From Parcubacteria group bacterium GW2011_GWC1_36_108 (GTDB lineage: Bacteria; Patescibacteriota; Minisyncoccia; Moranbacterales; GWC2-37-73), in the NCBI GenBank assembly GCA_000991245.1, contig LBRD01000005.1:10944-74943 (forward strand): a stretch of 64,000 nucleotides of DNA, read 5' to 3'. Below, in pieces: positions 5,854 through 61,847 of this stretch (its first letter is position 1; every line of letters starts with the position of its first letter). Below the pieces are notes generated by a model. That model made no database searches. It saw only the letters and a program-made list of their open reading frames with translations, and was not told the DNA's origin. A program made the position numbers and the translations under genes.

Positions 5854-8800
5854 TTAGCAAGTTGTTCCAGTTACGATTCCACCTTCGATTGTGATAGTAC
5901 AAGTATCAGTAGTCAGTGGACCTTTTACTACAGTAAGCGTACTGCTAACTCCACTGTTTCCATCAACCTTAAATACTCCAGTAGCTGAAACATCTTTAAC
6001 ATCTGAAAGATCATTTCCATTAGCATCAATGTCTGCTGCCATATTCAATGTGTCAGCAAGGTTAAGTCCTCCGCTTCCAGTAAAGTCAGTTCCACTGTTT
6101 CCAAGGTTAGTCAAAACATTATCATGCATATCAATGTCACCTCTCATATCAGAATCCCCTGTTATATCAAAACCTCCCGCAGTAACAGTGAACAGACCAC
6201 CAGAAGTTATTGCTCCACCGAATAATCCGCTAGTAGCAATATTCAAACTTCCGCTACCAACAAGATTCCCGCTAAGAGTAAGCGCTGAAAGATTTGTATC
6301 TCCGTTTGATTGAATTTGCCAATCACCGTCTGTAATTGAAACATTAGCATTAGAATTACCAATATGAACTTGCGCAGCGTCTGCCCCTGCTGTTCCAAGA
6401 TTTATTGTTGAATCTGGTCCAGCAGTGTTGTCAGAATTTGTAAGACCAGTAAGGAAATTTACACTGTCAGCATAAATTGTTGACCAACGTGAACCGCTTG
6501 TTCCAAGTGATCCACCAGTAATGTCACCCTCGACGTGCAAATTAGCCTTGCCAGTTCCTGTATTTCTAATAAAAACATCAGAATCAACAGCATTGTTTGC
6601 AATATCAATATTCATGCTGTTGCTTGTTGAAAAGATGTTTCCACCTGAAAGACCTGCTGTTCCATCGCTAAGTAAGAAAGCTAACACGCTGCCTGTTGTA
6701 TTTACATTTATAGCGCTGTTTAAGTCGCTACCCACTATTGTTCCGTCTATAATTTTTGCAGAATCAACACTATCACCAGAAAGTTTTGCGTTTGTTACTG
6801 CACCATCAACAATAGAATTTGTTGTTATTGAATTATCAACCACAGCAGCTGCAAGAGTTGCTGTGCTAGCATTTCCTGTGATGTTAGCAGCTATATCAGA
6901 TGAAAAAGTTTTAATTCCATCTATTGTTTGATCTCCAATTGTGTAGACACCATTAGTAACAGTTTCAGCATTTCCTGTGATATTAGCAACTATGTCAGAT
7001 GAAAAAGTTTTAATTCCATCGATTGTCTGATCTCCGATTGTGTAAACACCATTGGTAACAGTTGCTGCATTTCCTGTAATATTAGCAACAACATCCTGCG
7101 TGAATGTATTGATGCCAGTCAAAGTGTTATTAGCAGCAGCATAAACTCCATCAGTAACGGTTGCAGCATTTCCTGTAATGTTAGCAACTATATCAGATGA
7201 AAAAGTCTTAATTCCATCTATTGTTTGATCTCCGATTGTGTAAACACCATTGGTAACAGTTGCTGCATTTCCAGTAATATTAGCAACGACATCCTGTGTG
7301 AATGTGTTGATACCAGTCAAGGTATTATTAGCAGCAGTATAAACTCCATCAGTAACGGTTGCGGCATTTCCTGTTATATTAGCAATAACATTTGAAGTAA
7401 ATGTTTTAATTCCATCGATTGTCTGATCTCCGATTGTGTAAACACCATTAGTAACTGTTCCAGCATTTCCACTCACGTTGCCAGTTACATCACCAACAAG
7501 ATCTCCAGTAAATTGAACTGCAGTTATAGTTGTAGTTGAATCGATATTACTTCCGGTTATTGTGTCATTTGCGATTTTTACACCAGTTACCGCTCCGTCA
7601 GCAATCTTTGCAGTAGTTACACTTTGATCTGCAAGCTTCACAGGAGTAATAGCACTATCTGCGATTTTTCCAGAAGTAACAGCAGCATCAAGAATTTTTG
7701 AAGTGATAACAGAATCATCTGCTAATTTTGAAGTTGTTACTGCACCATCAAGAATTTTTGCAGTAATCACGCTACCATCAGCTAATTTAATATCAGTAAT
7801 TGCACCGTCCTGGACTTTTGCTGTTGAGATTGAACCGTCAGCTAAATTAACAGCCACGATTGTTCCATCGGCAATTTTTCCAGAAGTAACAGCACCGTCA
7901 ATTATTTTTGCAGTCGAAACAGAATTGTCAGCTAATTTTATCGTAGTAATTATTCCATCTGCAAGATCAGCTACTTGAACCGTTCCGTCAACAATCTTTG
8001 CGCTAGTCACACTATCGTCTGCTAGCTTTACTGTAGTGATTGCACCATCAGCAATTTTTTCTGTTGTTATTGTTGCATCCAGGATTTTAACTGCTGTTAC
8101 TGAATCATCTGCTAATATTGCAGTTGTCACAGCCAGGTCTTGAATTTTTGAAGTACTAACTGATCCATCTGCCAATTTGATATTTGTAATAGCGCTGTCT
8201 TCAATTTTTGCTGTTGAAATTGAACCGTCAGCTAAATTAACAGCCACGATTGTTCCATCGGCAATTTTTCCAGAAGTAATTGTTCCATCTAAAATTTTTG
8301 AATTAACCACGCTACCGTCAGCCAATTTGCTTGTAAGAATAGCACCATCAGCGATTTGATTGCTTCCAACTCCACCATCAGCAATCCCAACAGTTCCGAC
8401 ACCAATAGTTATTCCTGTTCCAGCGCCGACAGTTAAGGTTACATTTCCAAGTGTTCCACCACCAATCAATCCGTCTCCAGCAGTAACACCAGTTATTGTT
8501 CCACCACCAGCAATTGAGTTAACAGTCCAAGAACCATCGTTATTATTAACAACTGTAACATTGTCTCCAGCAACAATTGATTTAACCATACTTCCGTCTG
8601 AAGCAAGTTTATTTCCTGTTATTGTTCCATCAGCAATCTGCAGCCCAGTTATTGAACCGATAATTTTTGAAGCGTCTAAGCTTGTTATCCATGCAGGGTC
8701 ATTATATGAGCCAGTTGTGTAAACACCATCAGTAACGGTGTCAGCATTTCCTGTAAGTGTTCCAACAACGCTGCCAATAAGATTACCCACGAATGAACCA

Positions 8801-9654
8801 GCAGTAACTGTTCCAGTTGTTGTGACATCTCCGCTGCTTATAACGGTCACGCCATCAGTAAAAGAAGCTGCTGTAACAGCGCCTGTAGTGTTGATAGTAA
8901 TATCTGAAGCTAATTTTGAACCCGTGATTTCATTGTCGCCAATTTTAGCGGCAGTTACCACGCCGTCTGCCAATTTTGCAGTTACAATAGCTCCGTCAGC
9001 AATTTTTATTGTTGTCACAGCGCCATCAGCCAATTTTCCATTCGTTACTGCGCCATCAACGATCTTTGCGGTCACAATTGCATCATCTGCAATTTTAACT
9101 CCCGTAACAACTCCGTCAGCAATCTTTGCTGTTGTCACGCTGCCATCAGCCAATTTAACATCAGTTATTGCACCATCAACAATTTTTGCTGTAGTCACGC
9201 TATCATCAGCCAATTTTAAAGTCACAATTGCACCATCAGCAATTTTACCAGCAGTGATTGAGCCATTTGCCAAAGAAACGCCAGCAATTGCACCATTAGC
9301 CAATTTGGCAGAAGTGATTGCACCATTTTTGATGTCTCTTGCTTTAATCGAATCTCGCAAATTTAATTTTGAATATCGTATGCCAGCATTATTTGCAATA
9401 TCCTTATTTTTTAATCGACGTGAAATGTCTACTACATATTGAACACCATTTTTTTCAGCAACCTTTATCACGCTCAATATTTTTTCAGTTCTTGTTTTAG
9501 CATTAACACCATAAAAACCTGCTCCTAAAATAAAAACAACCATAACCAAAACAGTTACGATTTTAACTTTCTTTGCATTTTTCTTCAAAACGTCAGAAAC
9601 AACCCTTCCCTTTTCTAACACTTCCTGCCCAAAAGCTTTTTTACTCATACTCAT
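5854..9654 (-). CDS. giant repetitive cell-surface protein (N-terminal membrane anchor; dozens of ~9-10-aa [KL]ADG[AS]VT[TS]AKI beta-helix-like repeats plus 33/66-aa repeats)
   Basis: 1266 aa ORF; TM segment VTVLVMVVFILGAGFYGV; extreme Thr/Gly/Ala/Val/Ile repeat composition; DNA tandem repeats of 99 and 198 bp. Confidence 0.75.
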   Translation of the reverse strand: MSMSKKAFGQEVLEKGRVVSDVLKKNAKKVKIVTVLVMVVFILGAGFYGVNAKTRTEKILSVIKVAEKNGVQYVVDISRRLKNKDIANNAGIRYSKLNLRDSIKARDIKNGAITSAKLANGAIAGVSLANGSITAGKIADGAIVTLKLADDSVTTAKIVDGAITDVKLADGSVTTAKIADGVVTGVKIADDAIVTAKIVDGAVTNGKLADGAVTTIKIADGAIVTAKLADGVVTAAKIGDNEITGSKLASDITINTTGAVTAASFTDGVTVISSGDVTTTGTVTAGSFVGNLIGSVVGTLTGNADTVTDGVYTTGSYNDPAWITSLDASKIIGSITGLQIADGTITGNKLASDGSMVKSIVAGDNVTVVNNNDGSWTVNSIAGGGTITGVTAGDGLIGGGTLGNVTLTVGAGTGITIGVGTVGIADGGVGSNQIADGAILTSKLADGSVVNSKILDGTITSGKIADGTIVAVNLADGSISTAKIEDSAITNIKLADGSVSTSKIQDLAVTTAILADDSVTAVKILDATITTEKIADGAITTVKLADDSVTSAKIVDGTVQVADLADGIITTIKLADNSVSTAKIIDGAVTSGKIADGTIVAVNLADGSISTAKVQDGAITDIKLADGSVITAKILDGAVTTSKLADDSVITSKILDAAVTSGKIADSAITPVKLADQSVTTAKIADGAVTGVKIANDTITGSNIDSTTTITAVQFTGDLVGDVTGNVSGNAGTVTNGVYTIGDQTIDGIKTFTSNVIANITGNAATVTDGVYTAANNTLTGINTFTQDVVANITGNAATVTNGVYTIGDQTIDGIKTFSSDIVANITGNAATVTDGVYAAANNTLTGINTFTQDVVANITGNAATVTNGVYTIGDQTIDGIKTFSSDIVANITGNAETVTNGVYTIGDQTIDGIKTFSSDIAANITGNASTATLAAAVVDNSITTNSIVDGAVTNAKLSGDSVDSAKIIDGTIVGSDLNSAINVNTTGSVLAFLLSDGTAGLSGGNIFSTSNSMNIDIANNAVDSDVFIRNTGTGKANLHVEGDITGGSLGTSGSRWSTIYADSVNFLTGLTNSDNTAGPDSTINLGTAGADAAQVHIGNSNANVSITDGDWQIQSNGDTNLSALTLSGNLVGSGSLNIATSGLFGGAITSGGLFTVTAGGFDITGDSDMRGDIDMHDNVLTNLGNSGTDFTGSGGLNLADTLNMAADIDANGNDLSDVKDVSATGVFKVDGNSGVSSTLTVVKGPLTTDTCTITIEGGIVTGTTC
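6880..7480 (-). repeat. in-frame 99/198-bp coding tandem repeats inside the surface-protein gene
   Basis: gtgtaaacaccattggtaacagttgctgcatttcc recurs at 7040, 7238 and 7436 (198-bp period); protein unit NGVYTIGDQTIDGIKTF...ITGNAATVT. Confidence 0.6.
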
Positions 9655-9846: not shown

Positions 9847-10920
9847 TTATAAACCAGCTTTTCCCAATTGTTCAATGATTTTTCTTTGATCTCTGGAGAC
9901 ATTTTTTGGGACATCGACGATAATTTTCAACAAATGATCCCCGCGATTCGTGCGTCCAAGACTTGGGACACCTTTTCCTTTGATGCGAAAAAGTTCTCCG
10001 GATTGTGTGCCAGCAGTAATTTTCATTTTTACAGTCTCATCTATCGTTTCCACATTTATTTTGTCCCCCAATGATGCCTGCGAAAATGAAATGTGTTCGG
10101 ATGAAAGCAAATTATTTCCTTCGCGCGTAAATTTATTGTGATTCAAAATGTGAACCGTGATATACAAATCGCCATTTTGAGCACCTCGCTCGCCAGCTTC
10201 TCCTTGACCCTGCATAGAAAGAGTTTGGCCATTTGAAATTCCAGCAGGGATATCAACAGCAACTTTGCGCGATTGTTTGACGCGACCTTCTCCTCGGCAT
10301 TTGTGACATTTTTGTGAAAAAGTTTTTCCCATTCCCTGACAAGTTGGACAAACATAAGCCTGTGAAAATGAACCGAAGAAACTGCTAACCGTTTTGTGAA
10401 TTTGCCCAGAGCCTTTGCAAGTTGAGCAGGTTTCTTGTTTTGCACCGGGTTCTCCACCGCTGCCACCACAAACGTCACAAGCAACACTTTGATAAAGATC
10501 AATCTCTCGATGAGCTCCAGAAACCATTTCTTCAAAAGTTAATTCAACGTCAACCTGAATATCATTGCCGGCTTTTCGCATATCGCGACTTCTGCCACCA
10601 CCGCCACCAAAGATATTAGAAAAAATATCCTCAAATCCCTCGCCAAAATCGAAGCCTTGCCCACCAAATCCTTGACTATTAAAACCGCCACCTCCAAAAC
10701 CTCCGCCCATTTGCTCAAAGCCACTGCCGAATTGATCATATTTTTGACGCTTGGATTTATCTGAAAGCACCTGATATGCTGCATTAATCTCCTTAAATTT
10801 CTCAGCATCACCACCAGACTTGTCTGGATGATATTTATGCGCCAATTTACGATATGCTTTCTTGATTTCATCGTCAGAAGCATTTTTATTAACACCTAGA
10901 GTTTTATAGTAGTCTGCCAT
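9847..10920 (-). CDS. dnaJ: molecular chaperone DnaJ
   Basis: J domain with HPD motif (KYHPDK), G/F-rich linker, four CxxCxGxG zinc-finger repeats and a C-terminal domain. Confidence 0.92.
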
Positions 10921-10975: not shown

Positions 10976-11002
10976 TTAGCAATCCCCTAGTGGGAGTGCT
11001 AA
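10976..11002. promoter_or_regulatory. CIRCE (HrcA operator) inverted repeat upstream of dnaJ
   Basis: TTAGCAATC-N9-GAGTGCTAA, 56 nt upstream of the dnaJ ATG. Confidence 0.7.
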
Positions 11003-13928: not shown

Positions 13929-14396
13929 CTATTTAGTTTTTTGTTTTATCCAATTCACATATCCCCCATTTGCCTCAACTTCAATTTTCATGATGCAGGA
14001 CTGACTCATTTCCACATTTCTTTTTCCCGCAAAAAGAAACCTGGAGGAAAGAAAAGCTCGCACCTGATGAAGATACTGTGGCAAAAACTTCGCTCTTCGC
14101 TAAAATTTACACTGCGCGCCTACGTCTGCTGACGGGCGCTACGTTTCAAAATTTCTTAACGCTCATCACTCGTTTTTTGCCTACGTACTTCATATGGTGC
14201 AAAGGGAATGCAAAATGCAAGATGCAATAAGTTTTTCCTCAAGCAAATGTTCAGCAACTTTTTTCGCTTCTTTGAGGTTTTTGTGAGTGATGTAGAAGAT
14301 GATGGATTTTATATTTCTTTTAAAATCTATTTCTATACTCGCTTCTTTTTTGATAAATTCTCTCATTAAACCCACCCTGTTTGACAAATTCTTCAC
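13929..14396 (-). pseudogene. cutA: cutA (divalent-cation tolerance protein) remnant, frameshifted and truncated
   Basis: N-terminal CutA-like SIIFYITHKNLKEAKKVAEHLLEEKLIASCI runs into a stop. The CutA-like C-terminus (VLHHEN / IEVEANGGYVNWIKQKTK*) is in other frames further downstream. The 5' end overlaps the neighbouring four-helix-bundle gene. Confidence 0.4.
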
Positions 14397-14877
14397 TTAG
14401 AGTTGCGAGTTGTTTGTCGAGAAGATAATTTGTTTGATAAATGACGCAGATGGCAACATTAGCAGCTGACTCAGGATCGTTCAAATAGGACGAATAAGAC
14501 TGAAAGGACGGATTATTATAGCACAAGTTTCGCACAATTTTTGCCTGCGGAAAATCTTTCGCCCAAAGTTTCAAATTTCTTTGTCGAAGAAAATCCTCGT
14601 AGTCCAAAAGTAATTCTTCCAAACTTGCACGTGCGACGTTTGTCAATTTGAGCTCCGTCTTTTTTGAAGTTCCTGCTGCCCGACTTCCTTCAGCAATATT
14701 TTGTCTGCCACTGCGTGCCGCTTGATCCATCTGATCGCGAGTCCTGCTTTTATAATCAATGTATCTTTTTGTAAATTCAACAGTAATATCGTAGACAATC
14801 GTCGACATCTGAAAGGATTTCAGATCGCGATAGCCACCATGCGTGAACATTAAATTTTCATCAGTCCTATTTGTCAT
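14320..14877 (-). CDS. four-helix-bundle protein (23S rRNA intervening-sequence protein family, long variant)
   Basis: 185 aa; core motif SGRQNIAEGSRAAGTSKKTELKLTNVARASLEEL. Confidence 0.7.
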   Translation of the reverse strand: MTNRTDENLMFTHGGYRDLKSFQMSTIVYDITVEFTKRYIDYKSRTRDQMDQAARSGRQNIAEGSRAAGTSKKTELKLTNVARASLEELLLDYEDFLRQRNLKLWAKDFPQAKIVRNLCYNNPSFQSYSSYLNDPESAANVAICVIYQTNYLLDKQLATLSEEFVKQGGFNERIYQKRSEYRNRF

Positions 14878-14914
14878 ATTCGTCCTATTTGATTTTTGTT
14901 TTTATTATATCACA

Positions 14915-16903: not shown

Positions 16904-17146
16904 ATTTTTATAACCCCACAAATCTACAAATCTTTTACGAATATACAAATTAAATTCGTTTTTAAAATATTTGCAAAATTATAGGTTAAATTAATTATTG
17001 CTTATTATTTTTTGTTATATGTTACATGTTATATGTTTTATGTTATACTTATATTAGAGCTTGATACATCGCTATCTGCTTCGCCCTACGGGATATTTAA
17101 CTTATGCCCGTATGGGCTTTTTTATTTATAAAGTTTTCTTCAACCA

Positions 17147-17195
17147 CTTTATAAACTTTATAACTTTATAACTTTATAACTTTTTACTCTACCAC
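17147..17195. repeat. tandem octamer repeat (CTTTATAA)x4-5 between grpE and dnaK
   Basis: actttataactttataactttataactttttac; the inverse-orientation tract (TTTATAAAG)n is at 18534-18572. Confidence 0.5.
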
Positions 17196-17217
17196 CTACC
17201 ACCTAATTCCTAACAAC

Positions 17218-17778
17218 CTATTCGACCACCACTCTTGCTGCACGAATAACTTTTTCTCCAATCTTATATCCCTTAGTTAAAACTTTTTTAATCTTGTTTT
17301 TATATTTGTGATCAACTTTGCAATCCACACATTCATGATCTTCAATTGCTTCGTGATAAATTGGATCAAAATTATCTCCAACCTTCACTTCAATTTCCTC
17401 AACCCCATTTTCGGTCACAATATTTTCCAATTGTTTTTGAATATACATAATTCCAGTTACCCAAGAATTTTCTTTTTGATCTTCCGGGATATGATCAGTC
17501 GAAGCATGAAAATTATCAATTACTGGCAGAATTTCTAAAATGATACTTTGCATTGCATATTTGATTAAATCTTTTTGCGACTCCGCACTTCTTTTTTTGT
17601 AATTTTCAAAGTCAGCTTGGCAACGCTGCCATCCTTCCAAGTTTTCATTTGCTTTTTTCTTTATCTCAGCAAATTCATCCATGGCCTCATCAAGAGAAAT
17701 ATTTTCCTCAACAGATTCTACATTTTTGAGATCAATAATTTCCTCTTTTTCTTTCTTTTTTTTGTGTTCTTTTGACAT
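17218..17778 (-). CDS. grpE: nucleotide exchange factor GrpE
   Basis: 186 aa; GrpE coiled-coil plus C-terminal beta domain (ILPVIDNF...VLTKGYKIGEKVIRAARV). Confidence 0.9.
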   Translation of the reverse strand: MSKEHKKKKEKEEIIDLKNVESVEENISLDEAMDEFAEIKKKANENLEGWQRCQADFENYKKRSAESQKDLIKYAMQSIILEILPVIDNFHASTDHIPEDQKENSWVTGIMYIQKQLENIVTENGVEEIEVKVGDNFDPIYHEAIEDHECVDCKVDHKYKNKIKKVLTKGYKIGEKVIRAARVVVE

Positions 17779-18527: not shown

Positions 18528-18533
18528 ATAAAA

Positions 18534-18572
18534 TAGTTTATAAAGTTATAAAGTTTATAAAGTTTTTAAAGC
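18534..18572. repeat. tandem repeat (TTTATAAAG)x4 in the hrcA promoter region
   Basis: gtttataaagttataaagtttataaagtttttaaag. Confidence 0.5.
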
Positions 18573-18651
18573 AATACGAGCCCAAACATTACTTTATAAA
18601 CTTTTAACTTTATGAACCTTAAGAACTTATGCATTCATTATAATCCATCCG

Positions 18652-18678
18652 TTAGCAGTCGTCAAGTCCGAGTGCTAA
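18652..18678. promoter_or_regulatory. CIRCE (HrcA operator) upstream of hrcA
   Basis: TTAGCAGTC-N9-GAGTGCTAA, 125 nt upstream of the hrcA ATG. Confidence 0.75.
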
Positions 18679-20517: not shown

Positions 20518-21323
20518 CATAATATAATCCTTGTGTGAGGAAAATTTTTACCCAACAATATTTTCTCGTAATTTTTCTCATTTAGACCATTGAATATCTC
20601 AACTGATTTTGATCCCTTACCGCAAAGTATGCTAATCTTTTTTATTTTACCCAAAAGACCACCTGTAGCATCAGCATTATGAGATTCTGATAATTTTATG
20701 TTTTTTTTGATATTTTTTAATGAGATATTTTCTACAAGTTCAGCATCGTTATGCAAATAGGGATCTTTAGTAAAAACACCTTCAATATCGGAAGCGAAAA
20801 ACATTTTTTTTATTTTTAATTTATCAGCCAAGTATGGAACAATGGCGTCGCCAGAACATATTGTCATCCCAAGTTTTTTATCAAAAACCATATCTCCATA
20901 CAAAATAGGAATACAATTTTTTTTCAATGATTCCTTGATTGTTAACATATTGAAATCAACAATTTTTTTATTATCATTAATAATAACTGAAGCTGTATGC
21001 ACCGAGGTAATAGGTAACCCCTCAGAAACAAAAATTTCAGTAATAGCATTGTTTAATCGTTGATTGGCATTGCGCGAAAGAAGTGCGCCTTCTATTTTTC
21101 GCTTATCGTTTCCAGTGCCATCCATAAGCGCATATTCTTTTGCCAAGGTATGACCAAAACCACCTGCCCCATGAACAAGCACTAGATCGAAGTCTTTTTC
21201 TTTTTTGGCAAAAATTATAGACTGAGCAACCTTTTTCATGAGAGAATGCCTAACAGAAAAACCTTTTTTGTTTTTGTGGGTTGCAACACTGCCACCAATT
21301 TTAAGTATATATATAGGTTTCAT
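20517..21323 (-). CDS. isopentenyl phosphate kinase / amino-acid-kinase family protein
   Basis: ILKIGGSVATHK...LVHGAGGFGH motifs; start placed at MKPIYILKIGGS. Confidence 0.7.
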   Translation of the reverse strand: MKPIYILKIGGSVATHKNKKGFSVRHSLMKKVAQSIIFAKKEKDFDLVLVHGAGGFGHTLAKEYALMDGTGNDKRKIEGALLSRNANQRLNNAITEIFVSEGLPITSVHTASVIINDNKKIVDFNMLTIKESLKKNCIPILYGDMVFDKKLGMTICSGDAIVPYLADKLKIKKMFFASDIEGVFTKDPYLHNDAELVENISLKNIKKNIKLSESHNADATGGLLGKIKKISILCGKGSKSVEIFNGLNEKNYEKILLGKNFPHTRIIL

Positions 21324-21445
21324 AATTTTATGCGCAATCAAATGATATGATAATACTCATTTTCCCTCCTTTTGTCAATATTCAAAATATGGTTTATAAT
21401 TATATTGTTACGTGGTAAACTATTGAAAAATAAAAAGAAAAAATA

Positions 21446-22354
21446 ATGAAAACTGTTGAATTTAAAAATATCACTTGGATTGACTTTGTTGATCCGGGAG
21501 CAGACGATGTTGTGTATCTGCAGGAAAATTTCGATATCCACCCGCTGGCGATTGAAGAGTTTGTCACTCCGACATATCGTCCGAAAGCTACGCAATATGA
21601 AAATTGCATTTTTCTTACAATTCACATTCCCCTTTTTAATGTTGAAACACGAACAACTTATCCAGGAGAATTAGACATTGTTCTTACTAAAGATCATTTG
21701 ATAACTGGGCAGACAAAAGAAATTTATCAACTAGATGATTTTTTCACAAAATTAGCCAACAACGAAGGGCAACGTCGTTTGTATATGAACAAAACTCCCG
21801 CTCATCTTTTGTATAGTATTCTTGAAATGCTTTTGGAATCATGCTTTCCACGCATTGATCATATCCACAGAAAATTGGAACATATTGAAGAGCAGGTTTT
21901 CAATGGGAAAGAAAAGGAAATGGTTTTCGAAATATCCGTCGTAAAACGTGATATTCTTAATTTTCGCCGAACACTCAAACCTCAACGTCATATCATTGAA
22001 TCACTGGCGCAAATGAAATCCCCTTTGATTGCTGCGGAGCTTTCAGCATATTTTCAAGATCTTACAGGTACAAACATCCGTCTTTGGAATGCGCTGGAAT
22101 CAAACAAGGAAACGATTGAGTCTATGGAGGAAACTAATAATTCTCTGCTTTCCAACAAATTGGATTTCACCATGAAAGTGCTTACCGTTTTTTCAGCAGT
22201 TATGATGCCAATGACAGTATATTCAAATATTCTTGCTATGAGCGCTGATATCCCTTTTGGCAAAAGTCCGCATGCATTTGCTATTCATGTCTCTATAATG
22301 CTTTTCATCTCACTTTGCACTATAATCGTATTCAAAAGCAGAAAATGGCTATAG
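21446..22354 (+). CDS. CorA-family divalent cation transporter (canonical GMN motif not evident)
   Basis: 302 aa; N-terminal HPLAIEEF and RPK motifs; two C-terminal TM helices. Confidence 0.6.
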   Translation: MKTVEFKNITWIDFVDPGADDVVYLQENFDIHPLAIEEFVTPTYRPKATQYENCIFLTIHIPLFNVETRTTYPGELDIVLTKDHLITGQTKEIYQLDDFFTKLANNEGQRRLYMNKTPAHLLYSILEMLLESCFPRIDHIHRKLEHIEEQVFNGKEKEMVFEISVVKRDILNFRRTLKPQRHIIESLAQMKSPLIAAELSAYFQDLTGTNIRLWNALESNKETIESMEETNNSLLSNKLDFTMKVLTVFSAVMMPMTVYSNILAMSADIPFGKSPHAFAIHVSIMLFISLCTIIVFKSRKWL

Positions 22355-22358
22355 GGGG

Positions 22359-22814
22359 CAGCTTATTAGGCTTTAGCTTATTAGCTTTTTAGAAAATGCG
22401 AAAATGCATTCGTTAGCTTATTAAGAAATACAACAGCATGATAAATTCATATAAAGATCTCATTGTTTGGCAGAGATCAATGGAGCTTGTTGTTGAAATT
22501 TATAAAGTTACTGAAGAATTTCCAATAGCGGAGTTGTATGGTATCATATCCCAAATGCGCAGAGCTGCGGTCTCGATTCCTAGCAATATAGCAGAAGGAA
22601 GAAAAAGAAGTACGAGAAAAGATTTCAGACAATTTTTAATTATAGCGTACGCCAGCGCTTCTGAATTGGAAACGCAAATTGAAATATCAAAACGCTTAAA
22701 TTTCATTGAAGTTGACAAATATACAAAAACTGATGCACTATTACTTGAGACAATAAAAATGCTAAACAAAATGATTTCCTCCCTAAAAAGCTAACGCCTA
22801 ATAAGCTAAAAAAT
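22359..22814 (+). repeat. F-element copy F1: imperfect 19-bp inverted repeat (cagcttattaggctttagc / gctaacgcctaataagcta) enclosing a four-helix-bundle ORF and abutting the cysS ATG
   Basis: Same arms as the ORF-less hairpins at 24758-24850 and 41521-41600. Confidence 0.55.
22438..22794 (+). CDS. four-helix-bundle protein (23S rRNA intervening-sequence protein family, short variant)
   Basis: 118 aa; IPSNIAEGRKRSTRKDFRQFLIIAYASASELETQIEIS. Confidence 0.8.
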   Translation: MINSYKDLIVWQRSMELVVEIYKVTEEFPIAELYGIISQMRRAAVSIPSNIAEGRKRSTRKDFRQFLIIAYASASELETQIEISKRLNFIEVDKYTKTDALLLETIKMLNKMISSLKS

Positions 22815-24245
22815 ATGTTAAGTCTATACAATACACTATCTAAAACCAAGCAGGAATTCAAGTCATTAAATCCCGGTAAAGTCGGGATGTATACTTGTGG
22901 ACCAACTGTATACAGTTATTTACACATTGGAAATATTCGAGCATATCTATTGTCAGACACCGTGCGAAGATATTTAGAATATATCGGATATGAAGTACGC
23001 CTGATTAAAAATATCACCGATGTTGGACATCTGACCGATGATGACGTTGCTCAAGGAGATTCAGGAGAAGACAAGATGGTTAAAGCTGCCGAGCGTGAGA
23101 AAAAAACTCCCGAAGAAATTGCCAGATTTTATGAAGAATATTTCAAACAAACCGAGAAGGAATTAAACATTATTCCTGCGCATTTTTTTCCACGCGCCAC
23201 TGCGCATGTTCCGCAAATGATTAAGATCATTGAAGGTCTCATTGAAAAAGGATACGCCTATGAAAAAAATGGTAACGTTTTTTTTGATGTCACAAAATTT
23301 GAGGATTACGGAAAACTTTCTGGCAACACCTTGGAAAATTTAAAAATAGGAGCAAGAATAGAAGAACATCCTGACAAAAAAAATGCTTGGGATTTTGCAC
23401 TTTGGATCAAAGCTCCAAAAGAGCATGCGATGAAATGGGAATCTCCTTGGTCAGTTGGATATCCTGGTTGGCATATTGAATGCTCCGCTATGAGCACAGA
23501 ATACCTTGGCAATACAATTGATATTCATACTGGCGGCGAAGATAACATTTTTCCTCATCAAGAAGCTGAAATTGCGCAAACAGAATGTTACACTGGTCAA
23601 AAATTTGTAAATTTTTGGGTTCATACTCGTCACCTACTAATAGATGGCAAAAAAATGAGCAAATCAAAAGGCAATTTGTTCACGCTTGAAGACATCAAAG
23701 AAAAAGGATTTTCTGCAATGGATCTGCGTTTACTGTTTCTCTCTTCTCATTATCGCAGTCAAACAAATTTCTCCTGGGAAGCTCTTGAGCAAGCACATAA
23801 AAATATTCAGAGAATTAATGATTTTGTATTAAATATTGAAGCAATCGCCTCAAGGGATTTAGTCTCACCAAAAACAATCGACACAAAAGCTGTTGTAGAA
23901 AAATTTGAAGCTGCGATGGATGATGATCTCAACACCCCCCTAGCATTAAGTATTTTTTATGGATTTATTTCTGATTGCAACAAACTTCTTGCAATAAACC
24001 ACATAGACAGCAAAAGTGCGCATAGCATTTTAACACTTTGGAAAAAAATAAATTCTGTTTTTGGATTTATACTTTCCGGTCAAGCAGAGATTCCAGAAGA
24101 AATTAAACTCTTAGTCAAGCAGCGCGAAGAGGCTAGAAACGGAAAAGATTTCAAAAAATCGGACGACCTTCGCGCCCTCATCGAAAAACATGGTTTTATT
24201 TTGGAAGATACTAAGGATGGGCAAAAAATTAGACTAGCTAGCTAG
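22815..24245 (+). CDS. cysS: cysteine--tRNA ligase
   Basis: HIGH (LHIGNIRAY), KMSKS, CGPT and zinc-binding motifs. Confidence 0.93.
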   Translation: MLSLYNTLSKTKQEFKSLNPGKVGMYTCGPTVYSYLHIGNIRAYLLSDTVRRYLEYIGYEVRLIKNITDVGHLTDDDVAQGDSGEDKMVKAAEREKKTPEEIARFYEEYFKQTEKELNIIPAHFFPRATAHVPQMIKIIEGLIEKGYAYEKNGNVFFDVTKFEDYGKLSGNTLENLKIGARIEEHPDKKNAWDFALWIKAPKEHAMKWESPWSVGYPGWHIECSAMSTEYLGNTIDIHTGGEDNIFPHQEAEIAQTECYTGQKFVNFWVHTRHLLIDGKKMSKSKGNLFTLEDIKEKGFSAMDLRLLFLSSHYRSQTNFSWEALEQAHKNIQRINDFVLNIEAIASRDLVSPKTIDTKAVVEKFEAAMDDDLNTPLALSIFYGFISDCNKLLAINHIDSKSAHSILTLWKKINSVFGFILSGQAEIPEEIKLLVKQREEARNGKDFKKSDDLRALIEKHGFILEDTKDGQKIRLAS

Positions 24246-24310
24246 GTACTAGGTTTTAGGTTCTAGGTTTTAGATATTGGGTTCTAGGTTCTGGGTTTTA
24301 GGTGTTAGGA
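24245..24310. repeat. 7-bp tandem repeat tract (TAGGTTN)x~9
   Basis: ctaggttttaggttctaggttttagatattgggttctaggttctgggttttaggtgttagga. Confidence 0.6.
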
Positions 24311-24338
24311 AATGCAAGATACTATTTTAGACAAAAAG

Positions 24339-24380
24339 AAAGGCGGGGGTTGCAGTTTATGCATCCCTCGCCTTTTTTAT
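24339..24380 (+). terminator. rho-independent terminator after cysS
   Basis: aggcgggggttgcagtttatgcatccctcgccttttttatttt. Confidence 0.5.
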
Positions 24381-24399
24381 TTTCCAATATCCAAAACAT

Positions 24400-24591
24400 T
24401 TATTCAAGATCATAAAAATCAGACTCGACACCAGCACCAGCGACGCTCAAAGATTGTTCAAAATTTGCAATACATTTTTGCAATTTCTTATTTTCCGTAT
24501 TCAGGAGGGTGTTTTTATCTTTCGAATCAGTTATTTCCTCATCCTTCTGATTTTCTACCTGATTAAGTTTAAAATCTCCAGCTTCTCTGGT
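24400..24591 (-). CDS. small acidic coiled-coil hypothetical protein (64 aa)
   Basis: Start placed at MTREAG with GGGAAGG 7 nt upstream. A promoter-like TAGTATAAATCTATATTAGTA lies further upstream. Confidence 0.4.
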   Translation of the reverse strand, partial: TREAGDFKLNQVENQKDEEITDSKDKNTLLNTENKKLQKCIANFEQSLSVAGAGVESDFYDLE

Positions 24592-24722
24592 CATAATATT
24601 ACCTTCCCTTTCCGGCATTTGCCGTTTAATTTGACAACGAACTACTAATATAGATTTATACTATTTTTTTGCGATTACGTCAAACTGTGCGCAAATCGTG
24701 CACAAATATCCATCTGGGCTGG

Positions 24723-24750
24723 GTTGATTTTACCAACATACTTGCTATAA
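24723..24750 (+). promoter_or_regulatory. sigma70-type promoter for dnaB
   Basis: TTGATT-16 nt-TATAAT. Confidence 0.5.
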
Positions 24751-24757
24751 TAAAAAA

Positions 24758-24850
24758 ACAGCTTATCAGCTTCTTAGGCATTAGCTTTTTAGAAACCTGA
24801 TAAGATATCTTTTTTCTAAAAAGCTAAGAAGCTAAAAGCCTAACGCCTAC
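24758..24850 (+). repeat. F-element copy F2: long imperfect hairpin in the dnaB leader with no ORF in its loop
   Basis: cagcttatcagcttcttaggcattagctttttagaaa - cctgataagatatcttt - tttctaaaaagctaagaagctaaaagcctaacgcctacc, then ATG 6 nt later. Confidence 0.55.
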
Positions 24851-24855
24851 CCCTT

Positions 24856-26250
24856 ATGGCTAAAGAATGGAAAGACTACAAACCAAAGCAGGCTCCGGCG
24901 CAAAATTATGATCCGCTGCGCACGCCACCACATAACAATGAGGCTGAAATGTCTATTTTGGGTTCTTTGATGTTGGAAAAAGATGCAGTTATCAAAATTG
25001 CTGATCTTTTAAAAGTTGGTGATTTTTATAAAGACATTCACAATCAGATTTATGAAGCAATGCTGGAACTTTATGAGCAGAGAGAACCTTTGGATGTTTT
25101 GAGTATTTCCAACAAGCTGGATGAAAAAAAACAATTGGAACAAATTGGCGGTTCAAGTTATTTGGCTTCCTTAGTTGGAACAGTTCCATCAGCATCCCAC
25201 ATTGTACATTATGCTAAAGTTGTTCAGAAAAAAGCATTGTTGCGCAGACTTATCAATGCTGCCAGTGAAATTATTGAAGCTGGATTCCGCGAAGGTGATG
25301 ACGTAGAAAAAATTCTCGATGAAGCTGAACAAAAACTTTTTGCTGTTTCTCAAAAATATATAAAGCAGGATTTCTTGCCAATCAAATCAATTTTGGAAGC
25401 TGCCTTTAATCGTATTGATGAGCTTCATCGCGATGGCAACAAGTTCCGCGGAATTCCAACCGGCTTTGCTGATCTTGATAATGTTCTGGCTGGCCTGCAA
25501 AAATCTGATCTTTTGATTCTTGCTGCCCGACCTTCAGTTGGAAAAACATCACTAGCACTCGACATCGCACGTCACGTGGCGGTCAGAGAAAATGCAGCAG
25601 TAGCGATGTTCTCTTTGGAAATGTCAGCCGATCAACTTGTGGATCGTATGCTTGCCGCTGAAGCCAATGTTGATTTGTGGCGACTTCGAACTGGGAGACT
25701 CAACAGTGAAGGCGAGAACAATGACTTTCAACGAATTGGCGAAGCAATGGGTATTCTTTCTGAAGCAAAATTATTCATCGATGATACTGCCAGCGCCAAC
25801 ATTATGGAAATGCGCACAATGGCACGTCGTCTTCAAGCTGATAACAACCTCGGACTTATTATTATCGATTACTTGCAATTGATGGAAGGACGCGGCGGAG
25901 ACAATCGCGTGCAGGAAATTTCTGAAATTTCTCGCGGACTAAAAAATTTGGCTCGTGAACTTAACATTCCAATCATCGCACTTTCGCAGTTATCCCGCGC
26001 CGTTGAAGCTCGCTCTCCACAAATTCCAAAACTTTCTGATCTTCGAGAGTCTGGTTCGATTGAGCAGGATGCTGATGTGGTTCTTTTCCTATACCGCGAA
26101 GATCGCGAAAAACCAGACACCCCAAACAAAGGTATTGTTAAAATCATCATCGCCAAGCATCGTAATGGTCCAGTCGGCGAAGTCAGCGCATTCTTCCAAG
26201 AAAACAGCGCGAGTTTTAGGTCACTCGAGAAAATACACCAACAAAATTAA
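24856..26250 (+). CDS. dnaB: replicative DNA helicase DnaB
   Basis: N-terminal DnaB domain; Walker A (ARPSVGKTSLALDIARHVA); RecA-like C-terminal domain. Confidence 0.93.
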   Translation: MAKEWKDYKPKQAPAQNYDPLRTPPHNNEAEMSILGSLMLEKDAVIKIADLLKVGDFYKDIHNQIYEAMLELYEQREPLDVLSISNKLDEKKQLEQIGGSSYLASLVGTVPSASHIVHYAKVVQKKALLRRLINAASEIIEAGFREGDDVEKILDEAEQKLFAVSQKYIKQDFLPIKSILEAAFNRIDELHRDGNKFRGIPTGFADLDNVLAGLQKSDLLILAARPSVGKTSLALDIARHVAVRENAAVAMFSLEMSADQLVDRMLAAEANVDLWRLRTGRLNSEGENNDFQRIGEAMGILSEAKLFIDDTASANIMEMRTMARRLQADNNLGLIIIDYLQLMEGRGGDNRVQEISEISRGLKNLARELNIPIIALSQLSRAVEARSPQIPKLSDLRESGSIEQDADVVLFLYREDREKPDTPNKGIVKIIIAKHRNGPVGEVSAFFQENSASFRSLEKIHQQN

Positions 26251-30625: not shown

Positions 30626-30662
30626 GGTAGGTGTTAGGTTTTAGTTTTTAGGTTCTAGGCTC
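30626..30662. repeat. 7-bp tandem repeat tract (TAGGNNN)x5 ending 3 nt before the alaS ATG
   Basis: taggtgttaggttttagtttttaggttctaggctctg; mRNA-sense reads ...cctaacacctacccatATG. Confidence 0.55.
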
Positions 30663-30929: not shown

Positions 30930-31190
30930 TTACCTCCCCAAATTATTCATTTGATGTTTAAGTTTGATAATCTCAAGCTGCATTTGCTGATGATCAGCAG
31001 TCAATTTTTTCAATTGATTTTCCCTGAGAAGAGTTTCGGTTTGAAGTTGCGACTGTTTGTGTTTAAGTTCGCGCAAAACAACATCAACATCCAACATAGC
31101 ACGCTCACTTCTTTTTATGTCAGAATCTTTGAGCATTATCGCCATCTGCAACTTTTTTCTCTGCGCCAACAATTCAGGATCCATTTGCAT
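30930..31190 (-). CDS. small coiled-coil hypothetical protein (86 aa)
   Basis: Heptad-rich sequence; preceded by a CCTAANN repeat leader. Confidence 0.4.
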   Translation of the reverse strand: MQMDPELLAQRKKLQMAIMLKDSDIKRSERAMLDVDVVLRELKHKQSQLQTETLLRENQLKKLTADHQQMQLEIIKLKHQMNNLGR

Positions 31191-31193
31191 AAG

Positions 31194-31276
31194 TTTAGGA
31201 GTTAGTAATTAGAAATTAGGAATTAGGCAATAAAAATCCTGCATTTTACTACAACCTAATTCCTACAACCTACAAG
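31194..31276. repeat. TTAGNAA/CCTAANN 7-bp repeats forming an inverted repeat ending 3 nt before the ATG at 31190
   Basis: ttagtaattagaaattaggaattaggc ... acaacctaattcctacaacctac. Confidence 0.5.
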
Positions 31277-32398
31277 CTATAATATGATTCCTCCGCCCAA
31301 CACCTCATTGTCATCCGCATAAAACACAGCACTTTGCCCTGGCGTTATCGCCTTTTGTCTTTCCAAAAACTCCACTTCCAAAACGGTATTTTTTTGAGCC
31401 CCTGTTGTATGTTGCTTGTTGTATGTTGCTTGTTGTTTTATTATACCACGCACCAAAGGATGCCGGTATCTTATTTTTACATTTACCTCTAATGGCAATT
31501 TCGGCTCATCCGCAATCCAGTTTTTAAGTTCAACTGTCATTATTTTTTTAAACACTTTTTCATCTTCTTCATTATTAGTAACGATGAGTTGATTATTCTT
31601 AAAATCACGCTGGACCACAAAATATGGTCCATTGCCGCCAATATTAATTCCCTTGCGTTGACCAATAGTATAAGTTTCTAGTCCATCATGTGTGCCAATT
31701 TTTTTACCTTCGGTATTAATAATATCTCCTGGCGACAAAGCAAGATTACGTTTGATGAATTTGGTTGGAGTTTTTTCCGGTGTAAAACAAAGACCTTGCG
31801 AATCTTCCTTATCAAAAACTGGCAACTTTATTTTTTCGGCAATTTTTCTTATAGCAGGTTTTTTATATGTTCCCACGGGAAATAAAATTTTTGCGAGCTG
31901 TGCCTGCTTTAAGGAATAAAGAAAATACGTCTGATCTTTTTCTTCATCACTTGAAGTGTAGAGATGAAACTTTCCATCAATATTTTTCACTTCAGCATAA
32001 TGTCCAGTTGCCACAAAATCAGCGTCCATCTCCAACATCTTTTTAAACAAAAAATTAAATTTGATTCTTTCATTGCAAACCACGCAAGGATTTGGAGTGC
32101 GTCCAGCTTTTATTTCTGAAAGAAAATAATCCACGACTTCTTTTTTAAATTCTTGAGCAGCGTTGGAAGTATAAAGAGGGATGTCCAAAATTTGAGCCAC
32201 TTTTCGAGCATCTTGTTGAGATTCAACACTGCAACATTTGTTCTCTCTAAGTTCATCCTGTCCTGGTTCTTTCCAAAAATGCAAAAAAACACCCACGACA
32301 TCATAGCCTTGTTCTTTTAGAAGTGCGGCTGCCACCGAAGAGTCCACCCCGGCGCTCATCCCCACAATTACCCTCTTCTTGATTATATTCTTACTCAT
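31277..32398 (-). CDS. mnmA: tRNA 2-thiouridine(34) synthase MnmA
   Basis: PP-loop VIVGMSAGVDSSVAA; 14-bp in-frame tandem duplication at 31390-31420. Confidence 0.9.
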   Translation of the reverse strand: MSKNIIKKRVIVGMSAGVDSSVAAALLKEQGYDVVGVFLHFWKEPGQDELRENKCCSVESQQDARKVAQILDIPLYTSNAAQEFKKEVVDYFLSEIKAGRTPNPCVVCNERIKFNFLFKKMLEMDADFVATGHYAEVKNIDGKFHLYTSSDEEKDQTYFLYSLKQAQLAKILFPVGTYKKPAIRKIAEKIKLPVFDKEDSQGLCFTPEKTPTKFIKRNLALSPGDIINTEGKKIGTHDGLETYTIGQRKGINIGGNGPYFVVQRDFKNNQLIVTNNEEDEKVFKKIMTVELKNWIADEPKLPLEVNVKIRYRHPLVRGIIKQQATYNKQHTTGAQKNTVLEVEFLERQKAITPGQSAVFYADDNEVLGGGIIL

Positions 32399-41513: not shown

Positions 41514-41520
41514 AAAAATA

Positions 41521-41600
41521 GCTTCTCAGCCTTTAGCTTCTTAGCTTCTTAGAAAATTCAGGACACCTGAAAAGCTAAAAAGCTAACGCCTAAAAAGCTG
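41521..41600 (-). repeat. F-element copy F3 in the pheT leader
   Basis: mRNA-sense: cagctttttaggcgttagctttttagctttt-caggtgtcctga-attttctaagaagctaagaagctaaaggctgagaagctattttt-ATG. Confidence 0.5.
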
Positions 41601-42632
41601 TTAAAATTGTTTAATAAATCTTAAATCTCCAGAGTGAAAAAGTCTAACATCGTCTATTTTATATTTCATCATCGCCAATCGTTCCAAGCCAAATCCCCAG
41701 GCAAATCCCTGATATTTATTTCTTGGATAGCCCACAGCTTCAAAAACATTTTGGTTCACAATTCCAGCTCCACCAAGCTCCAGCCAGCCAGCCCATTTGC
41801 ATGATGAACAACCTTTGCCACCACACACCAAGCAATTAATATCAAATTCAAAACTTGGTTCTGTAAATGGAAAATAACTTGGACGAAGTCTAATCTCAAC
41901 ATCAGCCTTGAAGAATTTTGAGAAAAACTGTTCAGCCACAAATTTCAAATTTCCCACCGTGATGTCTTCGCCAACCATTAAGGCTTCGAATTGATGAAAA
42001 GTGTGATCATGAGTTGTGTCAGTTGATTCGCGACGAAAAACTCGCCCCGGAGCAATAATACGAAATGGTGGCGTGTGCTTTTCCATAAAGCGAATCTGCA
42101 CATCAGAAGTTTGCGTGCGCATCACGACTTTTTCATCTTTGCCTTCATCTTTTAGCCAGAAGGTATCTTGCATATCGCGAGCTGGATGATCCTTAGGGAT
42201 ATTAAGAGCATCAAAATTATAAAATTCTGTTTCCACTTCTGGCCCATCTGCAATTTCAAATCCCATTGAATTAAAAATATCTTCTATTTCATATTGAATT
42301 TTGCTCAGCGGATGAAGATGACCTCGCTGCAATTTTTTAGCCGGCATCGTCACATCAATTTTTTCCGCCGCAAAATCAAAACTTTTTTCCTTAAGTTCTT
42401 TTTCTTTTTCAGCAAGAACGCTTTCAACTTCAATTTTTGTTGCATTTGCAATTTGTCCCACTGTTTTTCGCTCCTGCTCAGTCAAGTCCTTAAGACTCTT
42501 GAGAATGTTTGTAAATTCACTTTTTCTTCCCAAAAATTTAATTCTCAAGTCATTAAGTTGGGCCAAGGATTCTACGGCGAGAATTTCAGCCAAAGCATCT
42601 TCTTTAATTTTGTTTATTTTTTCTTCGAGCAT
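41601..42632 (-). CDS. pheS: phenylalanine--tRNA ligase alpha subunit
   Basis: Class-II motifs 1-3 (FPFTEPSFEFD, GFGLERLAMMKY). Confidence 0.92.
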   Translation of the reverse strand: MLEEKINKIKEDALAEILAVESLAQLNDLRIKFLGRKSEFTNILKSLKDLTEQERKTVGQIANATKIEVESVLAEKEKELKEKSFDFAAEKIDVTMPAKKLQRGHLHPLSKIQYEIEDIFNSMGFEIADGPEVETEFYNFDALNIPKDHPARDMQDTFWLKDEGKDEKVVMRTQTSDVQIRFMEKHTPPFRIIAPGRVFRRESTDTTHDHTFHQFEALMVGEDITVGNLKFVAEQFFSKFFKADVEIRLRPSYFPFTEPSFEFDINCLVCGGKGCSSCKWAGWLELGGAGIVNQNVFEAVGYPRNKYQGFAWGFGLERLAMMKYKIDDVRLFHSGDLRFIKQF

Positions 42633-52643: not shown

Positions 52644-52651
52644 TTTTCTTG

Positions 52652-52690
52652 CCCCGTTAAATTGCGGTAATCCGCACTATTTAACTGGGG
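52652..52690 (-). repeat. E-element, short form (E3), hairpin ending 8 nt before the ATG
   Basis: gccccgttaaattgCggtaatccGcactatttaactgggg. Confidence 0.6.
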
Positions 52691-52720
52691 TTGCTTTTTA
52701 AAAAATTACTATTTTTTAAT

Positions 52721-58030: not shown

Positions 58031-58038
58031 ATTTCTTG

Positions 58039-61840: not shown

Positions 61841-61847
61841 GATATTA

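Follow-up and report, generated by a model that had tools for sequence, protein, structure and literature searches.

An operon-junction cassette of Candidatus Moranbacteria, with a four-helix-bundle gene between inverted repeat arrays, best explained as an element of 23S rRNA intervening sequence type outside ribosomal RNA

What is a gene of the family named after the intervening sequences (IVSs) of 23S ribosomal RNA (rRNA) doing between two protein-coding genes, in the narrow space that separates corA from cysS? The question is raised by an element at positions 22359-22814 of a 64-kb stretch of contig LBRD01000005.1, from Candidatus Moranbacteria (Patescibacteria, or candidate phyla radiation, CPR; G+C content 36.9%), which was analysed as a whole and is called the window in what follows. 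A first-pass annotation, made by a model from the letters alone, had described here a hairpin with a four-helix-bundle (4HB) gene in its loop, and related hairpins without any open reading frame (ORF) ahead of dnaB and pheT. The element is best explained as a non-ribosomal member of the 23S rRNA IVS class, that is, a TIGR02436 gene bracketed by inverted arrays and co-directional with its neighbours. The family concerned is a large one, with 22,306 representatives of 50%-identity clusters matching TIGR02436/PF05635 at E <= 1e-3; it has no known function, and it has been discussed almost only as an odd ORF of rRNA IVSs.

The presence of a complete gene for a 118-aa four-helix-bundle protein inside the cysS copy is confirmed by both family models: the protein scores 135.4 bits on PF05635 (E 1e-39, cut-off 33.8, residues 6-111) and 132.1 bits on TIGR02436, which NCBIfam calls "four helix bundle protein" (cut-off 24), and the families matched by the ORF are 4HB families only. 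Its solved homologs 2GSC (XCC0516, E 1e-23) and 2RLD (E 5e-6) were each deposited with five chains. The other genes named at the outset were likewise assigned correctly according to Pfam (Table 1), and the order corA-4HB-cysS is kept in relatives whose 4HB is 64-87% identical.

Around this gene, the junction is built of short tandem units. The corA stop is a TAG (22352-22354) placed 5 nt ahead of the left arm, which consists of four TAG at 7-8-nt spacing (TAG chain 22367-22392), and the right arm is a chain of four CTA that ends 7 nt ahead of the cysS ATG. The two arms lie 390 nt apart with the 4HB gene between them, as first described. The inverted repeat had been given as 19 bp with 17/19 matching, which is too short: 24 of 25 positions match once one 8-nt unit (cttattag) is allowed to bulge. 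Nor are the arms unique sequence; they are made of tandem 7-8-nt units. The claim that the right arm itself encodes the last codons and the stop of the ORF is borne out, the reading frame closing with tcc tcc cta aaa agc TAA (SSLKS plus stop) and the arm beginning at cta. Between the left arm and the 4HB ATG, the spacer contains a small hairpin of local pairing (aatgc..gcatt) and another, partial unit of left-arm type (gttagcttattaag), and one related locus, L010, carries a duplicated version of this segment. When positions 22340-22830 are folded, the minimum-free-energy (MFE) structure has a long-range stem that closes around the 4HB ORF.

Is this layout a peculiarity of one junction? For a broader view, 80 CPR loci were taken from species-representative genomes, with 4HB proteins 58-87% identical to that of the window; 77 were usable, and the 120 nt before each 4HB start were compared with the region around its stop, with a control displaced by 1.2 kb. 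A flanking inverted repeat above the 95th percentile of the displaced control was found in 72 of the 77 loci, the mean score being 35.6 for the true flanks, while the displaced control averaged 16.5 and pairs of arms taken from different loci 23.6. When duplexes were folded for sampled arm combinations, the two arms of one locus reached -38.6 kcal/mol, foreign arms -30.3 and shuffled ones -22.0 (Mann-Whitney p 2e-9). The left arm is a TAG-first chain with a spacing of 7 nt (149 cases) or 8 nt (89 cases) and the right arm the matching CTA chain, with a mode of 4-5 units in both arms against 1 in shuffled sequence. The consensus of the unit is TAG-[C/G]-T-T-N-T, within which TAG is invariant; the remaining positions differ among loci (TAGCTTG, TAGGTTG, TAGTTTG, TAGGAAT and others) and agree between the arms of one locus, so that the two arms are mutually complementary while the unit sequence varies from locus to locus. 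The ORF-in-hairpin layout noticed at cysS is thus a rule for the 4HB family, holding in these 72 of 77 CPR loci and in 11 of 12 loci from other phyla. The TAG-first polarity was considered as a sign that ORF and arms share an orientation and was rejected on logic: the order of a TAG array and then a CTA array is the same on either strand and carries no information on the direction of the ORF.

The cassettes are placed in their host operons with precision. The upstream neighbour is on the same strand as the 4HB gene in 76 of 77 loci and the downstream neighbour in 65 of 78. The median gap is 47 nt between the upstream stop and the 4HB ATG, and 28 nt between the 4HB stop and the start that follows. 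In 29 of 56 loci the upstream gene ends on the very TAG that opens the left array. The right array starts, in the median, 4 nt ahead of the last base of the 4HB stop codon and runs to 5 nt short of the following start. The arrays fill the span from the upstream stop codon to a few nucleotides before the downstream start codon. None of the 80 CPR cassettes lies in rRNA, and three are found just 5' of tRNA genes. The Rfam scan of the window found no family at gathering score anywhere, and neither rRNA nor a T-box; with no Rfam family at the elements of the window or of the 80 related loci, rRNA context, self-splicing introns and T-box leaders were rejected.

Outside the CPR, a protein-level search of plasmids returned 4HB genes in Cyanobacteria, Bacteroidota and Gemmatimonadota. 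Inverted tandem-heptamer arrays stand on both sides of the gene in 11 of the 12 loci inspected, and the twelfth has one array. The units are unrelated in sequence and complementary between left and right: TAGGGAG/CTCCCTA in Nostoc edaphicum, GGGAACA/TGTTCCC in Nostoc sp. C052, GGTGACA/TGTCACC in Anabaena sp. 90, TTCAAGG/CCTTGAA in Riemerella, GGGCAGGA/CTCCTGCC in Gemmatirosa and TTAGCTT/AAAGCTA in Pseudanabaena, the G-rich array being always 5'. These cassettes, too, are found within operons (cas6-4HB-cas4 twice, cas10-4HB-cmr3, parA-4HB-parB and ribonucleotide reductase, RNR), although between the two RNR subunit genes the cassette is antisense. Cassettes with heptamer arrays inside cas operons, on cyanobacterial plasmids (L172, L178, L180), are probably the reason why "23S rRNA IVP" is listed among CRISPR-associated domains (PMC10910872). 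As had been proposed, the layout agrees with what has been published on the rRNA IVS, in which inverted repeats at the ends, heptamers in tandem and an ORF in the loop are found together (PMC4990558). In Coxiella the terminal repeats form a stem of 28 bp, the loop holds the S23p ORF, tandem GACAGAT heptamers of variable copy number lie 5' of this ORF, RNase III cuts mid-stem at the first repeat, and the S23p gene is decaying and untranslated (PMC4990558). Furthermore, 4HB (23S_rRNA_IVP) ORFs have been recorded in insertions of the 16S and 23S genes of CPR bacteria (PMC11270868).

The same kind of arm also occurs with nothing in its loop. The palindromic family reported ahead of cysS, dnaB and pheT, here called F, is real and can be read directly from the sequence, the three copies consisting of common 7-8-nt units (AGCTTNTT / AGGCNTT) placed directly 5' of these genes. 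The 12-mer CTAAAAAGCTAA, with at most one mismatch, occurs 14 times in the window against 1.0 expected, a number that 0 of 100 shuffles reached; no further F copies were found in the window beyond the three loci, the rest being chance matches in coding DNA (2403, 28993, 32456). The window has 8 chains in which at least four TAG or CTA follow one another every 7-8 nt, where shuffles have 0.11, and all 8 are located at or between gene ends. The dnaB hairpin sits in the 5' leader, has a loop of about 23 nt, ends 6 nt before the ATG and folds as RNA at -27.7 kcal/mol (z = -4.7; 0 of 200 shuffles folded as well); a promoter-like site would place the transcription start a few nucleotides ahead of it, and the order TGCTATAAT-then-hairpin recurs in the related loci L014 and L015. 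The pheS/pheT hairpin fills the whole 87-nt spacer, from 1 nt after the pheS stop to 6 nt before the pheT ATG, with a loop of about 14 nt and an energy of -39.5 kcal/mol on the transcribed strand (z = -6.4; 0 of 200 shuffles as good). The loops had been stated as 12-17 nt and are corrected accordingly, and the pheT copy, whose hairpin is present as described, belongs to a gene on the minus strand and lies in an intra-operon junction, not in a promoter-proximal leader. Three independent assemblies have these hairpins in identical form. The existence of ORF-less hairpins of like units at other junctions is confirmed.

Solo arms are found as well. A TAGGTTY array of left-arm type begins at the cysS stop, with no partner nearby except the outer part of the dnaB right arm; at L010, the cysS stop is overlapped by a left arm of F type, whose partner is 1.2 kb off, before dnaB. 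A CTA array before alaS, a gene on the minus strand, is on the plus strand a direct repeat (30626-30660) of the TAGGTTY array of the cysS trailer, and from this relation the RNAs of the cysS 3' end and of the alaS 5' leader would be complementary. The alaS leader taken alone is unstructured (-0.8 kcal/mol, z +1.45). A further hairpin without ORF, made of TAGGTTG/TAGGAAT units (31191-31279), precisely bridges the stop of the gene at 31277-32398 (minus strand) to the start of an ORF of 86 aa at 30930-31190 (minus strand), the upstream stop codon being the first TAG of the array.

How have these elements evolved? Among closer orthologs, the 4HB gene has a dN/dS of 0.03-0.1 with dS above 1.5, values which indicate strong purifying selection on the cargo protein and hence that it is functional. 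The proposal that the ORFs are selfish sits badly with these values and with the retention of the cassette at the same junction across species saturated at synonymous sites. F-type arms persist in the window, L010 and L012-L014 in spite of that saturation. In L015 and L029 both arms are jointly switched to TAGGAAT/CTAATTC, and the hairpin that directly follows the TGcTATAAT promoter and ends about 6 nt before the dnaB start is shared by the window, L014 and L015 with units that differ in both arms; the two arms thus change in concert.

Turnover at orthologous junctions is just as evident. The pheS-pheT junction is only 1-13 nt long in many relatives; that of the nearest relative by PheS (88% identical) has a hairpin of unrelated units; L103 and L115 have a 4HB cassette there with TAG/CTA arms, L096 a GxxExxY (TIGR04256) gene between arms and L100 a Nudix gene between TAGC.../...GCTA arms. 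In partial support of the first-pass interpretation, one orthologous junction is polymorphic among relatives, being empty, hairpin-only or cargo-bearing. At another place, the hrcA leader of the window has a hairpin of CTTTATAA units (18528-18625, z -4.4), with related arrays after grpE (17135-17220). Strain L002 (1-3700), at about 93-97% identity to the window in the coding DNA of hrcA and grpE, has unrelated palindromes (ACATATA units) in place of the hrcA-leader and grpE-trailer hairpins, the position before hrcA being kept. The cassette allele at corA-cysS is also discordant with host phylogeny. By CorA (98%) and DnaB (100% over 115 aa), no relative is closer than L015, yet the 4HB of L015 is only 72% identical to that of the window and its CysS 80%, and the nearest 4HB to that of L015 is the one of L029 (85%), with the same arm type, though the CorA of L029 is 74% identical. 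The nearest 4HB proteins to that of the window come from hosts that are more distant and have F-type arms, and in general the closest 4HB proteins have like arm types. Over 21300-25200, nucleotide identity between L015 and the window is 82-92% in corA, 87-94% in dnaB, 66-70% in the 4HB gene and 57-92% in cysS; as cysS too belongs to the diverged tract, exchange of the entire segment by homologous recombination suffices.

The reading that we favour, to which we give a somewhat better than even chance, is that these are cassettes of rRNA-IVS type living in operon junctions, looped out by pairing of their arms in the transcript and with a stem processed by RNase III. The cassette has no room for a promoter or terminator of its own, from which we infer transcription together with the host operon. 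Within the polycistronic transcript the arms would pair and loop out the inserted gene, and this pairing would bring the upstream stop and the downstream start within a few nucleotides of each other, as in an uninterrupted junction (TAA-n-ATG in relatives). The resulting stem, of some 25-35 bp, would be the kind of substrate that RNase III cuts in rRNA IVSs; once cut, it would set the 4HB mRNA free, and the gene downstream would retain a short leader, poor in G and devoid of start codons. Arms of repetitive units would allow the long-range helix to nucleate in many registers and would tolerate the gain and loss of units. The F hairpins without ORF would then be the same arms minus the cargo, as a 5'-terminal stem-loop at dnaB and as an intra-operon bridge at pheS-pheT, and they may be decayed cassettes, precursors or independent insertions.

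Several points weigh against this model. Co-transcription, pairing in vivo and cleavage by RNase III are all steps that we infer, and there is no RNase III gene in the 64-kb window, which says nothing on the rest of the genome. On the sense strand, arm mismatches are of G-U type in 66 cases and of A-C type in 60, in a test weakened by the shuffling of units, and for the dnaB hairpin it is the non-transcribed strand that gives the better fold; with no G-U excess and with this strand preference, the fine structure does not favour pairing of RNA over pairing of DNA. The swaps of ORF-less hairpins between strains about 93-97% identical look like replacement at the DNA level, not like compensatory evolution of RNA. 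Moreover, the three cassettes ahead of tRNA genes have no ORF to follow them, two cyanobacterial cassettes are antisense to the surrounding operon, and solo arms exist, such as the unstructured alaS leader, so that the bridging of stop and start cannot be the whole story. The model also leaves a strongly conserved 4HB protein without a role.

What else could produce such a pattern? The elements might be palindromes that are mobile as DNA, like REP/BIME, ERIC or Correia/nemis sequences, with the arrays as terminal repeats of small non-autonomous elements inserting at stop/start junctions, and with the 4HB as passive cargo or as a RAYT-like factor that may maintain or spread hairpins of its own unit type. 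This we regard as unlikely, though not so unlikely as to be passed over, for it would account for the three states of the pheS-pheT junction, for the exchange of hairpins around hrcA and grpE with the position kept, for the three F-type copies within 20 kb, for the incongruence of the cassette allele with the host phylogeny and for the several divergent 4HB paralogs found per genome; and the common arm types of the closest 4HB proteins suggest that ORF and arms travel together. However, no transposase or recombinase is found in or beside the cassettes, we know of no catalytic activity of the 4HB, inspection of the three F copies and of filled versus empty pheS-pheT junctions shows no target-site duplication, and neither a transposition footprint nor near-identical copies at different sites were seen, the paralogs within a locus being old (29-63% identical to the query). 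ORF-less hairpins share units with the resident cassette in L068, in L015 and in the pheT copy of the window (ranking 2 of 78), but the match between ORF-less hairpins and the arms of their own locus is not significant overall (p 0.13); and the exchanged corA-cysS tract includes cysS itself, for which ordinary homologous recombination suffices. A different possibility, rather improbable in our judgement, is that the arrays are protein-binding sites. TRAP binds spaced (G/U)AG triplets, and a pentameric 4HB ring would likewise bind its own arm units, one 7-8-nt unit per subunit, with (UAGCUUNU)4-5 RNA or DNA as an expected target, so that binding would compete with arm pairing and control the translation of the 4HB gene and of the gene downstream. 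The strong purifying selection on a protein without enzymatic motif would fit, as would the modal 4-5 units per arm beside the five chains of 2GSC and 2RLD and the pentameric toroid described for S23p/4HB homologs (PMC4990558), the invariant TAG within variable units and the way in which arm type tracks protein relatedness; besides, the relative Avd (a weak NF033474 match) is a nucleic-acid-binding partner in diversity-generating retroelements. Such binding is putative, and it is at odds with cyanobacterial arrays of 7-15 units, with units as different as TAGCTTG, GGGAACA, GGTGACA and CTCTGCC beside a conserved protein core, and with ORF-less hairpins of several unit types in one genome, while shared ancestry alone also predicts that arms and protein are inherited together. 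Neither mobile palindromes nor TRAP-like binding is mutually exclusive with the IVS-type cassette.

Two further explanations carry far less weight. The arrays could be slippage-prone simple repeats or quasi-palindromes accumulating without function in AT-rich spacers, their association with 4HB genes being incidental; the variation of unit number and order between arms and relatives, the fast turnover at the pheS-pheT and hrcA junctions and the lack of G-U bias are what such a process would give. This is already strongly disfavoured, and we think it very improbable, since at least four phyla, with units of unrelated sequence, show this one architecture around a single protein family, placement from stop to start is exact, F-type arms are kept across saturated synonymous divergence and both arms change in concert. 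Intrinsic termination, attenuation or a degenerate T-box leader ahead of aminoacyl-tRNA synthetase genes can hardly be credited at all as an explanation of the hairpins: three of the five CTA-type leaders of the window do precede synthetase genes (cysS, pheT, alaS), and AUUUUUA follows the pheT hairpin, but a terminator scan covering the cysS and dnaB hairpins, and not the pheT region, was negative at both, the stems are AT-rich, the cysS and dnaB copies have no U-tract, Rfam finds neither a T-box nor any other family, and dnaB and many unrelated downstream genes have the same elements.

Could the protein be the reader of its own arms? One rather improbable reading makes the 4HB, instead of passive cargo, the specificity factor of a widespread system, whose pentameric ring would read arrays of 7-8-nt units, each paralog matching its own arms and the ORF-less hairpins like them. 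It would either control pairing, processing or translation at the junction, as TRAP does, or maintain and spread the hairpins like a RAYT, with no nuclease fold. If true, this would provide a function for a family of more than 22,000 clusters, explain the ORF of the rRNA IVS and account for arrays like the short tandemly repeated repetitive (STRR) sequences of cyanobacteria.

Part of this picture was known, namely the rRNA IVS with its S23p ORF, the many paralogs outside rRNA and the heptamers of the Coxiella IVS. In the searchable literature we found no account of 4HB cassettes outside rRNA that are generally framed by inverted 7-8-nt arrays, nor of their stop-to-start placement in operons, their ORF-less counterparts and their occurrence across phyla. 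Should the rRNA IVS be just one of the places in which a general cassette lives, the biology of the family would open to experiment; such a cassette would also explain why 4HB genes lie within cas and other operons and are scored as CRISPR-associated (PMC10910872), would link the cyanobacterial heptamer arrays to a defined gene, and would show how reduced CPR genomes tolerate insertions in tightly coupled operons.

Table 1. Coordinates of the cysS, dnaB and pheS/pheT elements and of the genes around them (window positions).
Feature	Positions	Strand	Sequence or basis
Left arm, cysS copy	22360-22392	+	agcttatt-aggcttt-agcttatt-agcttttt-ag
Spacer, left arm to 4HB ATG	22393-22437	+	sequence
4HB ORF, 118 aa	22438-22794	+	PF05635 / TIGR02436, "23S rRNA intervening sequence protein"
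Right arm, cysS copy	22783-22807	+	ctaaaaagct-aacgcct-aataagct
corA, upstream gene of the junction	21446-22354	+	PF01544, E 2e-50
cysS, downstream gene	22815-24245	+	PF01406, E 1e-103
cysS trailer, TAGGTTY array	24243-24311	+	starts at cysS stop; TAG chain of 5 units 24243-24273
Promoter-like site (TTGATT-16-TGcTATAAT)	24724-24751	+	10/12 match with extended -10
dnaB F hairpin, no ORF	left arm 24760-24792, right arm 24816-24849	+	sequence
dnaB	24856-26250	+	Pfam
pheT	39111-41513	-	Pfam
pheS/pheT F hairpin, no ORF	arms 41520-41552 and 41567-41599	-	sequence
pheS	41601-42632	-	Pfam

Additional 4HB genes were observed in the window and elsewhere. The window has a second one (14320-14892, minus strand), with TIGR02436 and the TIGR04258 "suffix" domain and with an inverted repeat of its own (14860-14892 and 14481-14513, 85% complementary); the downstream arm falls within the ORF, between the 4HB and suffix domains, and the frame appears to continue through the right arm into additional coding sequence. 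Many 4HB cluster representatives (P0125, P0147, P0150 and others) are proteins of 250-630 aa with the 4HB domain N-terminal, which may be read-through fusions with the downstream host gene or gene-calling artefacts across a short right arm. Two 4HB genes on the same strand occur within 5 kb in four loci, L079 (2501-2860 and 3595-4071), L016, L048 and L072; the paired paralogs are mutually divergent, and in L079 both have their own arms.

Other features of the window were recorded in passing. A Shine-Dalgarno sequence was found by the scan before only about 10 of 48 window genes, and before none of the 4HB ORF, cysS, dnaB and pheT; given the general scarcity, its absence was rejected as a special trait of these genes. 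Another palindrome family (ccccgttaaattgcggtaatccgcactatttaactgggg) stands directly 5' of two genes (52644-52695 and 58031-58082), and in strain L002 it is found in the dnaK leader and within a region called as grpE (near positions 500 and 1300). Long-range inverted repeats join the ends of the window, some 60 kb apart (1136-1284, 1895-1982 and 61703-61850; 83 nt at 99% and 88 nt at 89%), each holding the palindrome gcttttggata..tatccaaaagc. CIRCE-like operators, TTAGCAGTC-N9-GAGTGCTAA and TTAGCAATC-N9-GAGTGCTAA, lie at about 18652-18678 and 10976-11002, upstream of hrcA and of the gene at 9847-10920, and a 1266-aa ORF (5854-9654, minus strand) consists mostly of 99-nt and 30-nt tandem repeats.

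The elements share traits with several known systems. REPtrons consist of a RAYT gene flanked by inverted REP sequences, accompanied by dispersed REP/BIME hairpins. Like them, the cassettes have a small gene bracketed by inverted palindromic repeats, with ORF-less copies at intergenic transcribed sites, and the dnaB and pheS/pheT copies share F units (match p 0.13 across loci); unlike them, the cargo is a four-helix bundle and not an HUH (Y1) tyrosine transposase, and the arms are tandem 7-8-nt arrays varying by locus where the REPtron has one conserved REP. The Correia/nemis elements of Neisseria and the ERIC elements of enterobacteria are short palindromic insertions, co-transcribed with their neighbours and polymorphic between strains, and nemis hairpins are RNase III substrates that alter the fate of the mRNA. 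Short palindromic insertions polymorphic between strains are also what is seen here; however, Correia/nemis and ERIC have a fixed consensus, target-site duplications and no cargo gene, whereas the present elements are of tandem units, with no duplication seen and with a cargo gene. The inverted repeats would also suit a MITE (miniature inverted-repeat transposable element), which differs in its bordering target-site duplication.

STRRs are intergenic heptamers of heterocystous cyanobacteria (Nostoc, Anabaena, Calothrix), described as dispersed repeats of unknown function, and we know of no report of them as inverted pairs around 4HB genes; the arrays that flank the plasmid 4HB genes (GGGAACA, GGTGACA, TAGGGAG) look like this class. 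The accessory protein of diversity-generating retroelements, bAvd, is a homolog of the 4HB and forms a four-helix-bundle pentamer with nucleic-acid-binding activity, but the protein of the window reaches 23.9 bits on NF033474 against a cut-off of 80, and no reverse-transcriptase domain was found in the nine genes called around the cassette (L001), the neighbours being corA and cysS.

The comparison that goes furthest is with the rRNA IVS that carries an S23p ORF, as in Coxiella burnetii and Leptospira (PMC4990558). The window cassette differs from it in lying between protein-coding genes, corA and cysS, instead of in an rRNA helix, in arms that, in operon cassettes, abut a stop codon and a start codon, and in an ORF that is strongly conserved and probably translated where that of Coxiella is decaying and untranslated; cleavage by RNase III, established in Coxiella, is putative for the operon cassette. 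What the two have in common is a loop that encodes a protein of one and the same family, a stem of about 25-30 bp built from inverted repeats at the ends (in the window, arms matched at 24 of 25 positions and a stem in the MFE fold), tandem heptamers of varying copy number on the 5' side, and insertion at a point where looping-out would restore the geometry of the host RNA.

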